Position numbers and translations under genes: made by a program
Shown here: positions 35,340 to 40,478 of the stretch, piece after piece
Numbering within the stretch: position 1 is the first letter of the stretch
Layout: every line of letters starts with the position of its first letter
Source of the DNA: Candidatus Latescibacterota bacterium
Lineage (GTDB): Bacteria > Latescibacterota > UBA2968
Direction: 5' to 3'
DNA length: 64,000 nucleotides
Assembly: GCA_965116885.1 (NCBI GenBank)
Contig: OZ220741.1
Span: 3,328,001-3,392,000 of the forward strand
Notes under the pieces: generated by a model
Databases searched by the model: none
Told to the model about the DNA's origin: nothing
What the model saw: the letters and a program-made list of their open reading frames with translations, nothing else

Positions 35340-35363
35340 ACCCGGGTTCAGGGCGTAAAATGC

Positions 35364-35396
35364 AAAGGGGCGCATGATGACAGCGCGCTCCTTTTT
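35364..35396 (+). terminator. probable intrinsic terminator after sucC
   Basis: aaaggggcgc...gcgctccttttt. Confidence 0.6.
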
Positions 35397-35410
35397 GTTG
35401 TGTCTTTTGT

Positions 35411-35443
35411 TGACAATATGGCAATGATTTAGACAATATGGCA
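35411..35443. promoter_or_regulatory. direct repeat GACAATATGGCA x2 (20-bp period), candidate bEBP enhancer
   Basis: Copies at 35412-35423 and 35432-35443; first unit is pseudo-palindromic TGACA-ATA-TGGCA. Confidence 0.55.
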
Positions 35444-35520
35444 GGATTTTCAAAATTGTACAAATTTCAAATTAAAAATAAATAGTTGTTCTATATCAAA
35501 TTACAAATTTTCGGTCTTTA

Positions 35521-35536
35521 TGGTATATATATTGCT
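35521..35536 (+). promoter_or_regulatory. sigma54 (-24/-12)-type promoter
   Basis: TGGTATATATATTGCT, GG-N10-GC, TGG..AT-N5-TTGCT. Confidence 0.55.
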
Positions 35537-35626
35537 TTATAGAATGCGTGTTTAACCCCTCACTGCAATCCTATCTAAAGGGGAACACCCAGAGAAGATC
35601 GCCTCTACTGAAAAATTCTTCGCAAT

Positions 35627-35905
35627 TTGAGGCTCTATATTGACGCTCAGGAGATTGGGTTTGAGTACATCCTCAATCCCGATACTCAAGAACTGCATCG
35701 TGTTGATCCTCAAAATTTTTGGGAATCGCACAACTTAGAAATTGCTGATTTGGAGAACTTTATTGGTTTGACAAATGTTGGTATTCTGCCGATCCATAAA
35801 TTCAAAGATGGTGTAGGAGTACCAGTTTACGATCTCCAGACACGCGATTTGATTGGTGCCTATCGAATCAACAAATGTAAACACTGTTTCTCATCGGCAA
35901 ACTGA
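35627..35905 (+). CDS. small hypothetical protein with His and CxxC motifs (possibly the 3' part of a frameshifted gene starting at 35548)
   Basis: YILNPDTQELH...SH...CKHC; TTG start lacks an SD. Confidence 0.55.
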   Translation: MRLYIDAQEIGFEYILNPDTQELHRVDPQNFWESHNLEIADLENFIGLTNVGILPIHKFKDGVGVPVYDLQTRDLIGAYRINKCKHCFSSAN

Positions 35906-36041
35906 GGTAATACTTCCGAAATTAGGCGCAAAACAGAAGAAACTATTGATGTGACTTTGGTTTGATATCTTTTGTGAACTTCGCCATCAAATACTGTATT
36001 TGGGTTGGGACTCAAAAGTGACTAAACATGGGAGATAAATT

Positions 36042-38810
36042 ATGACCGAATGTACATGGAATGGTGCACGATGGTGGAAGTTCGATATTCACGCGCATAC
36101 CCCAGCCTCTAAGGATTATGGGAAGGGTAATAGCCAGCCATCACTTCAGGACTTATCTCCCAAGAAATGGTTGCTCAACTACATGCGAGCCGGTATAGAT
36201 TGTATTGCGATTACAGATCACAACACTGGCGCTTGGATTGATCCTGTCAAGAAGGCACTCGGCGAACTCGAGTCAGAGAAACCGGAGGGTTTCAGACCAC
36301 TTTACGTGTTTCCTGGTGTGGAAATTTCGATCTACGGCGGTGTGCATCTCTTGGCGATTTTGGGATGCGATAAGACCACGTCGGACATTGACTCCCTCCT
36401 CGGCGCCGTTGGATTTCCTTCTACAAAGAAAGGTTCGAGCGACGCTGTCACAACCAAGACATTTACCGAAGTAGTAGAGGCCATTATCGCGGCAAATGGC
36501 ATTGCTATTCCCGCTCATGTGGATGATTGCAACGGGCTTTTTCGGTTGCAGGGAACGACATTGCAGCAAGTATTGGACTGCAAAGATATTTTCGCCATGG
36601 AGGTAAGGAATCCAACATATCCGAAACCACAAACTTATAAGGTCAAAGATCTAAGTTGGACAGAAATCCTTGGCTCGGATGCTCACCACCCTTCAGGTAA
36701 CGTGGGACAGTCATTTCCGGGCAGCCACTTTACTTGGATCAAGATGGGGTTGCCCAGCATTGAGGGGTTACGGTTGGCCTTATTGGACGGTGCGCTTTCC
36801 GTGGAACGCTCCGACCAAAATACAGGCGACTTGAACGAGTACGCGCCATTGACATTGGATGCCATCGAAGTTTCTAAAGCCCGCTACATGGGACGCTCCC
36901 AGTCCTTCACGATTGGGTTCAATCCCTGGTTTAATGCCATCATTGGAGGCCGGGGCACAGGTAAATCGACTGTTGTGGAGTTCCTTCGTATTGCTTTGCG
37001 TCGGGAAGATGAATTGCCAGAAACTTTGCAATCGGAATTCGAACAGTATAGCAAAGTCTATCCATATAGAGAAGAGAGTGGACTGCTTACAAACGAGGCA
37101 AGCATCCGAGTGATTTGTCGGAAAGACAGCGACCGGTTTCGCATCCAGTGGAATCCATCCGGTGGCCTTGAACCTATTGAACAAGAAATCGATGGACAAT
37201 GGCAACGCGCAGAAGGCGACATTCGGCAACGGTTTCCTGTGCGAATTTATAGCCAGAAACAGGTATTCCAACTCGCAAGAACACCTCTTGCATTACTTAA
37301 AATTATCGATGAAGCTCCAAGAGTTGATTACCATGCCTGGTCTGAAAAACGGAAGGTAGAAGAAAATCGCTTTCTTTCTATACGTGCTAGGTCTAGAGAA
37401 CTCAAGGCCGGTCTTGGCGAAGAGCCTCGTCTTCGGGGAGAACTAGACGACGTAAAACGAAGGCTGGCCATCTTTGAACAGTCGGGACACGCGGAAATTC
37501 TTAAATCCTTTCAAAAACGAAGCCGCCAGTATCGGGAGATTGAGGCCTGGGAAAAAAGCTGGACCGGAATAGGAGAATTATTGCGCAAAGTCGCGGCTGA
37601 AATTGTGCCAGATCTTCCGGAGGATTCCCTTTTCAATTGGGATTCAGCACCAGATAAGGAATTGCAGAAGCATACCGCTAAGACGAGAGATCATCTGGAT
37701 GAAATCCGCAAATCGGTTGAAAATCTGGCATCAAAAACGAATGACATTATCGCAGAGTGGCGAAAAAACAAGGAAAAGTCATCATGGAAACACAGCGTTG
37801 ATGCTGCCACGCAAGCCTACCGAAAGTTGCAAGACGACTTGGCGCAAGAAGGGATTAGCGACCCTGCAGCTTACGGCGAACTCGTGCAGCGTCGGCAAAT
37901 CATTGAGCAACGGTTAAAGGAACTGGATGAACGAAAACAACAGGTTGATGATCTAAATCAGGAAGCTGATGCATGCCTACAAAATTTGTTAAAAATTCGT
38001 CAAGACCTGACGGCATCCCGGCAGAAATTTCTCAAGCAGGTCCTCATGGACAACGAGTATGTCCGGATACAAGTCGCTCCTTACGGAGCGCGAGAGATGG
38101 TCGAAAGTGAGTTTCGCCAAATACTCCAAAGACAGGATGGAACCTTTGAGAAAGACATTGGTTCGCCGGATGGCGAGGGATTGCTTGGTGAACTTTATGA
38201 GAAAGATGATGGTGCAAAGGTAATTGAAGAGAATCTCGTAAACATTAAAACCCATATCAAAAAGATCGCCTCGGGTGAATACGACACAGGAACAGTGGCA
38301 GACCGGCGTTTTGCTACCCATGTCGGTAGTCTTCCGCCTGAATCGCTTGACCGCCTCGACCTGTGGTTTCCGGAAGATTCTTTAGAGGTTCAATATAGCG
38401 CAAGAGGTGATGGACAGCGTTTTCTTTCAATACAGGAAGGTTCGCCCGGTCAAAAGACCGCAGCACTCTTGGCATTTCTGCTTTCTTACGGGAACGAACC
38501 GCTGATCTTAGATCAGCCCGAAGACGATTTGGACAACCACCTCATCTACGATTTGATCGTAACCCAATTACGGGCGATCAAACGCCATCGACAGGTCATA
38601 GTGGTCACGCACAATGCGAATATCGTCGTCAATGGCGATGCCGAGCAGGTGTTAGCACTTGCAGCGCGTGGTGGAGAAACGCAAAAAGAGTGCGAAGGTA
38701 GTCTGCAAGAGCAACAGGTTAGAGATACTATTTGTACCGTCATGGAGGGTGGGCGCAGGGCTTTTGATGATCGTTATCGCCGCATCGCATTGGAAGGACG
38801 ACATGTTTAA
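36042..38810 (+). CDS. PHP phosphoesterase fused to SMC-like ABC ATPase (Ppl/TrlF-like, putative anti-phage protein)
   Basis: PHP motifs DIHAHT, ITDHN, GVE, PAHVD, SDAHH; Walker A GGRGTGKST; long coiled coil; signature SPGQK; Walker B LILDQPEDDLD; VVTHN. Confidence 0.88.
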   Translation: MTECTWNGARWWKFDIHAHTPASKDYGKGNSQPSLQDLSPKKWLLNYMRAGIDCIAITDHNTGAWIDPVKKALGELESEKPEGFRPLYVFPGVEISIYGGVHLLAILGCDKTTSDIDSLLGAVGFPSTKKGSSDAVTTKTFTEVVEAIIAANGIAIPAHVDDCNGLFRLQGTTLQQVLDCKDIFAMEVRNPTYPKPQTYKVKDLSWTEILGSDAHHPSGNVGQSFPGSHFTWIKMGLPSIEGLRLALLDGALSVERSDQNTGDLNEYAPLTLDAIEVSKARYMGRSQSFTIGFNPWFNAIIGGRGTGKSTVVEFLRIALRREDELPETLQSEFEQYSKVYPYREESGLLTNEASIRVICRKDSDRFRIQWNPSGGLEPIEQEIDGQWQRAEGDIRQRFPVRIYSQKQVFQLARTPLALLKIIDEAPRVDYHAWSEKRKVEENRFLSIRARSRELKAGLGEEPRLRGELDDVKRRLAIFEQSGHAEILKSFQKRSRQYREIEAWEKSWTGIGELLRKVAAEIVPDLPEDSLFNWDSAPDKELQKHTAKTRDHLDEIRKSVENLASKTNDIIAEWRKNKEKSSWKHSVDAATQAYRKLQDDLAQEGISDPAAYGELVQRRQIIEQRLKELDERKQQVDDLNQEADACLQNLLKIRQDLTASRQKFLKQVLMDNEYVRIQVAPYGAREMVESEFRQILQRQDGTFEKDIGSPDGEGLLGELYEKDDGAKVIEENLVNIKTHIKKIASGEYDTGTVADRRFATHVGSLPPESLDRLDLWFPEDSLEVQYSARGDGQRFLSIQEGSPGQKTAALLAFLLSYGNEPLILDQPEDDLDNHLIYDLIVTQLRAIKRHRQVIVVTHNANIVVNGDAEQVLALAARGGETQKECEGSLQEQQVRDTICTVMEGGRRAFDDRYRRIALEGRHV

Positions 38811-40050
38811 TAGCCCGGAAGAACTGTTGCAGAAGATACGCCTTGGAGAAGATACGTCCCTTGAATTCAAGGCAGTTCGATTCAGGGGTGGTCGGGTTTC
38901 CGATCCACGTCGCGATGCTCTGGCCGACGAATTGGCGGCCATCGCCAATACGCACGACGGGGTGCTTGTTTTGGGTGTAGATGATATGACGCGGGATATC
39001 GTCGGAATTTCGATAGATGGCCTTGAGGTCGTCGAACGATATGTGTATGAAATTTGCAACGAGAGCATTACGCCGCCGATTCCTTTTCGTTCTTTTCGCA
39101 TGCAACTTCCCGATAGCACAGGGGAACTTCAGCCCGTGCTTACAGTAGAAATTTCGCGTAGCCTTTTTGTTCACAGGAGTCCCGGGGGATATTTCTTTCG
39201 GCAAGGAAGCTCAAAACGAGAGATGCAGCCTGATTACTTGGCGCGACTGTTCCAGCAGCGAAGCCAAGTCCGACTAATTCGATTCGAGGAACAATCAGTG
39301 CCGCAATCGAGTAAGGACGATTTATCCGAAAAGTTGTGGGCCAACTATACAACACGGTCTGATGAATCCACGGATATCGTGCTCCTTAAACGAGGTCTTT
39401 TGTCGAAGGGAGAAAGCGGCGCAGTAATGGCTTCGGTCGCTGGCATTCTGTTCTGTTGCGAGAATCCAGAGCACTTTTTGCCCAATGCTTATATTGAAGC
39501 TGTGCGATATCGTGGGAAAAACCAGGATTCCAATTACCAGATAGACGCACAAAGAATTTGCGGCCCGCTGAATCAACAGATTGAACAAGCAATGGCCTTT
39601 CTCAGGAAAAATCAGACAATCTCTGCCGTAAAGAGGCCGCATAGAATCGAACAGAAGCAATTCAGCGAGAGAGCGATTTTTGAAGCACTGGTCAATGCTG
39701 TGGCGCACCGCGATTACTCCATTTCTGCCTCAAAAATTCGGTTCTTGATTTTTGATGACCGATTAGAAATTTATTCGCCGGGTACTCTTCCCAACACTGT
39801 GACTATTGATAGCATCGCTCTTCGTCAGGCGACCCGAAATGAACTGATCACAAGTCTGCTTGCAGAAACGCCAGTGGCGGAAAGAGTTGGTGATGTGGGA
39901 CGAGGTTTTTACATGGAAAAGCGGGGCGAGGGCGTTCCCATCATTGTAAGCGAAAGCGAAAAACTCTCTGGTAAGAAGCCTATCTACCAATTGATTGACG
40001 ATTCCGAATTGCTGCTAACCATTTTTTCAAATCGGACTGAGGAGGCCTGA
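38803..40050 (+). CDS. Schlafen/AlbA_2 domain plus HATPase_c_4 (RecG-C-like) protein
   Basis: GEDTSLEFK, ELAAIANTHDG.LVLGVDD, EALVNAVAHRDY, EIYSPG, RNELI, EKRGEG; ATG 38803 overlaps the upstream stop by 8 nt. Confidence 0.85.
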   Translation: MFNSPEELLQKIRLGEDTSLEFKAVRFRGGRVSDPRRDALADELAAIANTHDGVLVLGVDDMTRDIVGISIDGLEVVERYVYEICNESITPPIPFRSFRMQLPDSTGELQPVLTVEISRSLFVHRSPGGYFFRQGSSKREMQPDYLARLFQQRSQVRLIRFEEQSVPQSSKDDLSEKLWANYTTRSDESTDIVLLKRGLLSKGESGAVMASVAGILFCCENPEHFLPNAYIEAVRYRGKNQDSNYQIDAQRICGPLNQQIEQAMAFLRKNQTISAVKRPHRIEQKQFSERAIFEALVNAVAHRDYSISASKIRFLIFDDRLEIYSPGTLPNTVTIDSIALRQATRNELITSLLAETPVAERVGDVGRGFYMEKRGEGVPIIVSESEKLSGKKPIYQLIDDSELLLTIFSNRTEEA

Positions 40051-40108
40051 TACAGGAACTGACCGAGCCAACTTAGCAGCATCACACCAACCCTAAGCAG
40101 AGGTTTTT

Positions 40109-40414
40109 ATGCCGACTTATGAATATGCATGTACTGCATGCGAGCACGAATTTGAAACTTTTCACTCCATCACCGCCGATCCCATTCGCCTGTGTCCCGA
40201 ATGCGGTGAGCAAAAAGTTGAGCGTCTCATCAGCGGCGGTGCAGGTCTGATCTTTAAGGGGTCGGGTTTTTATATCACTGATTATCGAAGTGAAGGATAC
40301 AAGGAAGCGGCTAAGAAAGATAAAGAAGCAGCCAGCGGTAAAAAATCTGACAAAAAGAAATCAGAGACCAAAAAGACCTCTGAATCAAAAAGTTCGGATA
40401 CCAAAGCAGCATAA
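40109..40414 (+). CDS. FmdB-family zinc-ribbon protein
   Basis: MPTYEYACTAC...CPECG...FKGSGFYITDY, Lys/Ser-rich tail. Confidence 0.9.
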   Translation: MPTYEYACTACEHEFETFHSITADPIRLCPECGEQKVERLISGGAGLIFKGSGFYITDYRSEGYKEAAKKDKEAASGKKSDKKKSETKKTSESKSSDTKAA

Positions 40415-40478
40415 AAAAGGAAATTATATTCTATCATGTCCCGTGCTCTGACATGGGAGCCAAACAAGGAGACAAAAC

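Follow-up and report, generated by a model that had tools for sequence, protein, structure and literature searches.

An overlapping PHP-ATPase and Schlatpase gene pair of the TrlF-TrlG architecture at a variable site in a Candidatus Latescibacterota genome

The window analysed here is a stretch of 64,000 nucleotides from Candidatus Latescibacterota bacterium (GCA_965116885.1, contig OZ220741.1, positions 3,328,001 to 3,392,000, forward strand). Between sucC and dnaK it contains two overlapping genes. Gene 1 codes for a large protein that would combine a PHP nuclease domain with an ABC ATPase resembling the structural maintenance of chromosomes (SMC) proteins, and gene 2 for a Schlatpase, in which a Schlafen (AlbA_2) core is fused to a GHKL ATP-binding domain. 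As far as sequence comparison goes, the pair is a real, intact and widespread two-gene cassette. We lean, with some reserve, towards the view that it is a mobile anti-phage cassette with two arms, a DNA-end exonuclease and a tRNase backup, produced from one translationally coupled operon.

Two overlapping genes and their domains

The features of the pair are the following.

36042..38810, + strand: gene 1, Ppl-like, TrlF-family PHP nuclease and SMC-like ABC ATPase, 922 residues (open reading frame, profiles)
36063..36806, + strand: PHP domain, about residues 8-255, with H17, H19, D59, H60, E94, H102, H159, D213 and H215
36945..36968, + strand: Walker A motif GGRGTGKS, residues 302-309, K308 being invariant in alignment A2
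37329..38045, + strand: predicted coiled-coil arm, helices 430-668 (AlphaFold model)
38442..38612, + strand: ABC signature S801 and G803, Walker B D824-Q825, H-loop H857 (alignment)
38792-38797, + strand: GGAAGG upstream of the gene 2 start
38803..38810, + strand: overlap of the gene 1 stop and the gene 2 start, 8 nt (open reading frame coordinates)
38803..40050, + strand: gene 2, Schlatpase (Schlafen AlbA_2 and GHKL/HATPase_c_4, without helix-turn-helix), TrlG-like, 415 residues, ATG at 38803
38848..39225, + strand: Schlafen core, E16-x4-E21-x-K23 and Schlafen box AAIAN at residues 45-49 (motif definition of PMC13056530, section 6)
39670..40002, + strand: GHKL ATP-binding domain, E294-x3-N298, HRDY, PG, RN and GxG (homologue alignment)

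The two open reading frames (ORFs) and their overlap are those described in an earlier note that a model made from the sequence alone (the sequence-only reading). Its account of gene 1 as PHP domain, coiled coil and ABC ATPase is borne out by the nine PHP ligands, the Walker A motif, helices 430-668 and the C-terminal ABC motifs. The gene 1 protein passes the NCBIfam model for TrlF (NF045780; 636.5 bits for a cut-off of 350, profile positions 1-943 of 944) and stays below the equivalog threshold of that for Ppl (NF042955; 590 bits, cut-off 1000). The Ppl profile of PADLOC matches residues 8-915 (E 7e-148), and in an alignment of 942 columns the protein shares 30% identity with E. coli Ppl (E 5e-116). 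Pfam gave no PHP match, so that this domain rests on the alignment with E. coli Ppl, which has the same residues at all nine ligand positions; the nine are kept in 66 of 68 clade representatives. The ABC positions are also those of E. coli Ppl (7/7 identical), and the position of the Walker B catalytic Glu is occupied by Gln in both proteins. The structural model (predicted local distance difference test, pLDDT, 88) gives the Smc head, JetC, MukB, RecN and Rad50 as best Foldseek matches; a sequence search of solved structures returned no match to this protein. A weak search for fused ATPase-Schlatpase forms of 1615-4610 residues found none, and the best 120 of the 6,068 matches in the ATPase-family search measure 874-937 residues, in a range that admitted a fusion of about 1,340 residues.

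In the gene 2 protein, both domains named by the sequence-only reading score above the Pfam cut-off (SLFN_AlbA_2, residues 16-141, E 6e-14; HATPase_c_4, residues 310-400, E 5e-18) and their motifs are readable. E294 is found in 177 and N298 in all of 178 homologues, and the spacing of these residues is that of E314 and N318 in RzAgo, a match made by spacing and without alignment. The protein has the features of a Schlatpase, or pSlfn1: AlbA_2 fused to GHKL (PF13749), E-x4-(E/D)-x-K, a Schlafen box and E-x3-N. Both motifs are kept in 71 of 72 paired members of the clade. Foldseek matches of the model (pLDDT 81) are DIP2311 (3lmm), SLFN14, SLFN13 and SLFN11, and the GHKL domains of PDK, and the PADLOC pAgo profile matches residues 130-413 (E 5e-22).

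The 8-nt overlap and the GGAAGG upstream suggest that the two genes are translationally coupled; the same overlap of -8 is found in 38 of 79 representative pairs. The gene block is mildly AT-rich, with atypical codon use compared to sucC and dnaK. The sequence-only reading had called it A-rich, which is true, if mild: the fraction of A is 0.285 in gene 1 and 0.264 in gene 2, versus 0.237 in sucC and 0.259 in dnaK, the GC content is 0.485 and 0.483 for a genome median of 0.524, and the codon fit of the pair is in the lowest 9-10% among 2,564 long ORFs, versus the 74th percentile for sucC and the 57th for dnaK. RNA-library contigs from relatives span both genes, which is no proof of transcription, and a scan of the locus for promoters and terminators gave signal at or below chance. 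The closest named relatives of the pair are in metagenome-assembled genomes of Latescibacterota.

Relation to TRL, Ppl and other known systems

The temperature restriction locus (TRL) of Photorhabdus laumondii, trlR-trlF-trlG (Hapeshi et al. 2020, PMC7554251), contains a gene annotated as a histidinol phosphatase, trlF, and a gene coding for AlbA_2 and HATPase_c_4 domains, trlG. As in the window, a large PHP-ATPase gene overlaps a downstream AlbA_2-HATPase_c_4 gene. The sequence-only reading did not recognise the pairing as a named system; the pairing is not nameless, because the same gene architecture is called trlF-trlG in Photorhabdus, and gene 1 belongs to the NCBIfam TrlF family. On the sequence evidence, the pair is a member of the TrlF-TrlG architecture, in a clade that contains Ppl. 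The architecture is already in print, and the locus is a clean example of a widely recurring one, not a new system.

In all comparisons with TRL, the pair of the Yersinia ruckeri plasmid pYR3, which is named in PMC7554251, stands in for the Photorhabdus proteins; the TrlF-family gene of Y. ruckeri pYR4 was rejected for this purpose, since it is a different, solo gene. The window ATPase is 24-29% identical to the pYR3 TrlF in two patches, compared to 30% to E. coli Ppl over the full length, which argues for a TRL architecture in a different, Ppl-like clade. The gene 2 protein is 28% identical to the pYR3 TrlG and lies in a separate clade in both trees, whereas the TRL tree criterion is a TrlG homologue of more than 60% identity in the same clade. 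TrlF of the TRL clade lacks two PHP ligands (nine TRL-clade rows) while the window ATPase has all nine, and TrlG of that clade has E-x4-Q-x-K where the window Schlatpase has E-x4-E-x-K. The pYR3 TrlR matches neither protein of the pair, and a 92-residue ORF upstream of gene 1 is unlike TrlR by eye and has no regulator family match. We observe that in the true TRL clade (L061, L062, L095, L099, L224-L231) the active site of TrlG is variant and TrlF is deficient in two ligands, yet TrlG is needed for growth arrest.

The sole phenotype published for the pair is that of TRL, a temperature-induced growth arrest with induced transcription (PMC7554251). Among 29 sequenced heat-tolerant suppressor clones, 19 had a point mutation in trlG, one an insertion in trlG, and none a mutation in the larger trlF (same source). 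We mapped 10 of the 11 published TrlG missense positions onto a plasmid TrlG by a one-residue offset, a placement that is inferred. They fall in the Schlafen catalytic motif, in the Schlafen box, at two highly conserved positions and beside the GxG of the GHKL domain, which suggests that the arrest needs both domains.

The PHP domain of Ppl is described as an NTP-gated 3'-5' exonuclease of single-stranded DNA; Ppl is anti-phage, and it is toxic without phage when RecBCD is inhibited (work of Gao et al. 2020 and Xu et al. 2026, Mol Cell, as described in PMC12904381 and PMC13648713). Ppl and the window ATPase share full-length homology, PHP ligands, Walker A, signature, D-Q Walker B, H-loop and a supported clade. 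The difference is that Ppl is a single-gene system whereas the window ATPase, like most of the clade, has a coupled downstream Schlatpase. The sequence-only reading gave the PHP domain a possible role in processing nucleotide signals or RNA ends; we found no evidence for that role and rejected it as unlikely, the same nine ligands being present here as in the exonuclease.

ATP-driven tetramerisation and tRNA cleavage have been shown for RzAgo (bioRxiv 10.64898/2026.05.29.728809). RzAgo and pSlfn1 proteins have the Schlafen and GHKL architecture of the gene 2 protein, with E-x4-E-x-K, Schlafen box and E-x3-N (same preprint; PMC13056530), the gene 2 protein differing from RzAgo by having neither an Argonaute core nor a helix-turn-helix. 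According to the preprint, Schlatpases make up 58.6% of 103,533 prokaryotic Schlafen proteins; its available text has 0 occurrences of "Ppl". In the supplement of PMC13056530, Gao_Ppl figures among the neighbours of some pSlfn1 genes, one case being a Burkholderia plasmid pair, and the main text, in the portion available, mentions no ATPase, operon or PHP. Annotation tools that report the ATPase alone, as Ppl, give no assignment to gene 2.

Lamassu is a system made of an ABC/SMC-like ATPase and a nuclease. It has in common with PARIS, whose AriB cuts tRNA (PMC12839542), and with the window an ABC/SMC-like ATPase gene that adjoins a nuclease gene. The effector fold is another one, and in the window a nuclease is built into the ATPase and an ATPase into the effector. 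The gene 1 protein gives weak, local PADLOC matches to AriA (E 5e-10) and LmuB (E 5e-11), none of them full length, and the gene 2 protein matches no AriB or LmuA profile; we rejected membership of either system.

Co-inheritance, solo members and genomic site

The adjacency of the two genes is far above chance, because the genome has eight further tblastn matches to the gene 2 protein and one TrlF-family gene only, and because elsewhere 33 of 51 ATPases are partnered. The sequence-only reading had advised counting how often an AlbA_2-HATPase_c_4 gene stands directly downstream, and adjacency turns out to be conserved. The 33/51 are full-length members from samples chosen by ATPase family alone: 17/25 in the class of genome G168 (401 genomes, G400 not scored) and 16/26 in the phylum of genome G169 (301 genomes), or 17/24 and 15/25 once the two centre genomes are set aside; these counts exclude copies that have internal stops or sit at a contig end, L031 among them. 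Of 21 GTDB loci from close relatives, 18 have the partner immediately after the ATPase gene (two are unpaired, one is at a contig end), as do 29 of 30 loci of the phylum, the window's own included and one at a contig end; the phylum set, which overlaps the former, includes a group that is 36-44% alike. Overall, about two thirds of family members are paired, in several clades only about 25% alike, and the deep branches of the two trees are congruent.

Counted from the Schlatpase, among the best 80 of 538 metagenome loci, there are 20 paired, 5 solo and 5 too short copies at an identity of at least 70%, 14, 1 and 1 at 60-70%, and 13, 15 and 6 at 45-60%. L146 is counted as paired among Schlatpase loci, although just a remnant of its ATPase is left; L086 and L050 have split Schlatpases, and L051 is without Schlafen domain, yet counted as paired in the ATPase trees. 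The patristic distances of the two proteins correlate with a rho of 0.92 (n=79 pairs; 0 of 1000 permutations as high), a value inflated by kinship. Scans of IMG/VR with either protein, whose reach is close relatives only, gave no match. A complex prediction with ATPase residues 268-860 and Schlatpase residues 3-409 gave scores of 0.07 and 0.01 for a mark of 0.32, with the PHP domain and the last 62 residues left out for size and controls not folded, and it weighs neither for nor against a complex.

The coupling of the two halves is not obligate, and each has repeatedly been kept alone. A 53-row ATPase tree (coiled coil excluded, midpoint root) requires at least 10 changes between the paired and the solo state. 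In it, E. coli Ppl falls within a clade of 26 rows (SH-aLRT 98-99), and there are paired members both around and outside it. This nesting makes E. coli Ppl look like the orphaned half of a pair. Intact solo ATPases are found on plasmids (50, 40 and 35% identity) and others beside paired sisters at 81-89%. Solo Schlatpases nest within paired clades of the Schlatpase tree, and both motifs are intact in 40 of the 43 solo Schlatpases of the clade. One chromosomal site (L068, L069, L081, L114-L119) offers a natural deletion series, with an intact pair, a Schlafen-deleted form, an ATPase remnant and an ATPase-free form. Orphan Schlatpases are under purifying selection: for the six ATPase-less copies at this site, the ratio of non-synonymous to synonymous substitution rates (dN/dS) is 0.02-0.14. 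Of five genomes with orphan Schlatpases (93-95% complete), four yield no TrlF-family gene above the cut-off and one has a copy elsewhere. A comparison of conservation between solo and paired members gave 20 candidate positions, none of them decisive.

The genome itself has tandem runs of two to three Schlatpase paralogues (G000:C1, about 4928868-4932432 and 2970388-2973603). The copies at 4928868 and 3685986 are inside partnered clades, and hence look like orphans of such pairs. The same Schlatpase clade includes a form of about 590 residues, extended at the C-terminus (L079:2840-4624), which is common without ATPase in many Latescibacterota-related genomes. A solo homologue of the ATPase, annotated as SMC (L263:1751-4369), lies between replication and portal genes in the P2-like Yersinia phage vB_YenM_42.18. 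This replication-portal interval of P2-like phages is a defence hotspot.

Two further features describe the site of the pair in the window.

35541..40107, no strand: variable insert between sucC and an FmdB-like zinc-ribbon gene that precedes dnaK (empty-allele contigs, genus relatives)
35627..35905, + strand: the 92-residue ORF, inside the insert and outside the conserved pair (tblastn)

The sucC-fmdB-dnaK interval is a defence hotspot. The pair occupies this site in three of the 19 genus relatives examined (20 exist; G075 ends inside the ATPase); in four, sucC and dnaK are no more than about 665 bp apart, and others have CBASS, TIR, Mrr, E1-like, MoxR-vWA or restriction-modification (RM) genes. 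One sequencing run contains both contigs identical to the window and a contig that joins 35541 to 40107, which is an empty allele; a second empty-allele junction joins 35544 to 40104. Across the phylum, the distribution is patchy (36/168 genomes), and a TRL-clade pair is inserted inside a type I RM operon.

The interval (35340-40478; L244-L262) has two slots in this genus. We find there a CBASS cyclase with E2 (L258) and similar genes (L260), TIR, Mrr and PDC-S54 genes (L244), ThiF/E1 with an AAA gene (L255), MoxR-vWA genes (L256, L257) and, between fmdB and dnaK in several genus relatives, an AccI-type RM pair. Among 243 indexed loci, tblastn finds the 92-residue ORF only at this site, in two close relatives. 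It has no Pfam or NCBIfam match over the cut-off; it has a C-terminal CxxC, and its atlas look-alikes, which are leads only, are mostly unnamed phage-type proteins.

Two arms or one machine

In the two-arm cassette that we favour, arm 1 would be a Ppl-type enzyme whose ABC head and PHP domain may detect free DNA ends and a drop in NTP levels in the infected cell; by analogy with Ppl, and given the conserved residues, the PHP domain would then degrade DNA 3'-5'. Arm 2 would be the Schlatpase, acting as a tRNase backup like RzAgo and probably TrlG. The arms would back each other up, for instance when a phage evades or blocks one trigger, and each would work without the other, E. coli Ppl being presumably a half without its partner. 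The TRL growth arrest in Photorhabdus would plausibly be autoimmunity of arm 2. The family and residue tests, the adjacency, the congruent trees, the separability of the halves and the defence context are all consistent with this proposal. The sequence-only reading had coupled an ABC sensor to an RNA-cleaving effector: the anti-phage families, the conserved and co-inherited pair, the intact catalytic residues and the defence hotspot support that part of it, while the solo members and the lack of trlF suppressors argue against an obligate switch.

Several points weigh against two independent arms. We found no phage test of such a pair in the literature searched, nor a paper that treats it as a defence system, although an earlier description is possible, for example in the ABC ATPase classification of Krishnan et al. 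2020. The text of PMC8565338 does not document the cassette either, with no mention of Ppl, PHP, AlbA or Schlafen. TRL is described for temperature restriction, phage defence not being its described role, and the available text of PMC7554251 has 0 occurrences of "phage". Two Schlafen-HisKinase constructs alone gave no defence against 12 phages (PMC13056530), which leaves the part that small Schlatpases play in defence unproven; Ppl is not listed as a neighbour of these two genes in that source, and the supplement sheets disagree on the class of one of them. A physical complex would equally be expected to give congruent trees and a fixed overlap over such distances, and the Mantel value is overstated because kin are not independent. 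Finally, the nearest orphan Schlatpase (L064, 79% identical, with a 44-residue ATPase remnant upstream) lacks the catalytic Lys, a loss that is expected if the ATPase restrains the RNase.

It is indeed possible, if clearly less probable than two arms, that the ATPase physically gates the Schlatpase, either by holding the RNase inactive (e.g. as a monomer) and releasing it to tetramerise upon DNA ends, NTP loss or a phage inhibitor, or by activating it directly. The mechanisms of PARIS and Lamassu are a parallel. Gating would account for the co-divergence of the proteins and for the conserved overlap, and the absence of trlF suppressors fits a restraining role, as does L064. The true TRL clade keeps the pair although its TrlF has lost two PHP ligands, the arm residue W582 is kept in 24 of 24 paired representatives and changed in 4 of 9 solos, and of the two partners the Schlatpase is the better conserved (dN/dS 0.07-0.18 versus 0.15-0.26 for the ATPase). 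The orphans (40/43 catalytically intact by motif, with purifying selection acting on them, and several from genomes in which no TrlF-family gene is detectable) argue against both strict restraint and strict activation, and direct activation would predict suppressors in the larger trlF, whereas there are 0 among the 29 clones and 20 clones have trlG lesions.

Both other explanations seem unlikely to us. The pair could be a stress or replication checkpoint, the Schlatpase arresting growth upon heat or nucleotide stress and the ATPase-nuclease acting on DNA ends: temperature-induced arrest is the only published phenotype of the pair, and Ppl is toxic under RecBCD inhibition without phage. The patchy distribution, the plasmid copies, the insertion in a type I RM operon, the solo member in a P2-like phage and the interchange with CBASS, TIR and Mrr at the same site fit defence better. 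Slightly more improbable still is that two unrelated defence genes were joined long ago in one transcript and travel together without synergy. Schlatpases are abundant and promiscuous, as their share of prokaryotic Schlafens and the eight other matches in this genome indicate, and at 45-60% identity 15 of 28 scorable ones have no upstream ATPase. Against such hitchhiking, both genes are often lost, yet pairing persists in about two thirds of members across very divergent clades with congruent deep branches.

A broader proposal, which we regard as doubtful and put a little below gating, is that Ppl, in its ancestral and commonest form, consists of two proteins working as one machine. The SMC-like ATPase would bind and gate a Schlafen tRNase and release it upon DNA-end or NTP-depletion signals, which would make the pair a bacterial counterpart of DNA-damage-triggered SLFN11. 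Single-gene Ppl would then be a truncated derivative, and the Photorhabdus temperature restriction a phage defence misfiring as autoimmunity. In any case, the pair links three things that were published separately: Ppl as one gene, the small Schlatpases and the TRL growth-arrest locus. The small Schlatpases are the commonest prokaryotic Schlafen form and showed no defence when tested alone, and the pair offers a direct test both of their activation and of partner loss by Ppl.

We also note that several of the distant TrlF-family matches found in relatives carry a flag for a single internal TGA, which is probably a leading stop or a frame edge, and that the genome has a tRNA-SeC near G000 607502.

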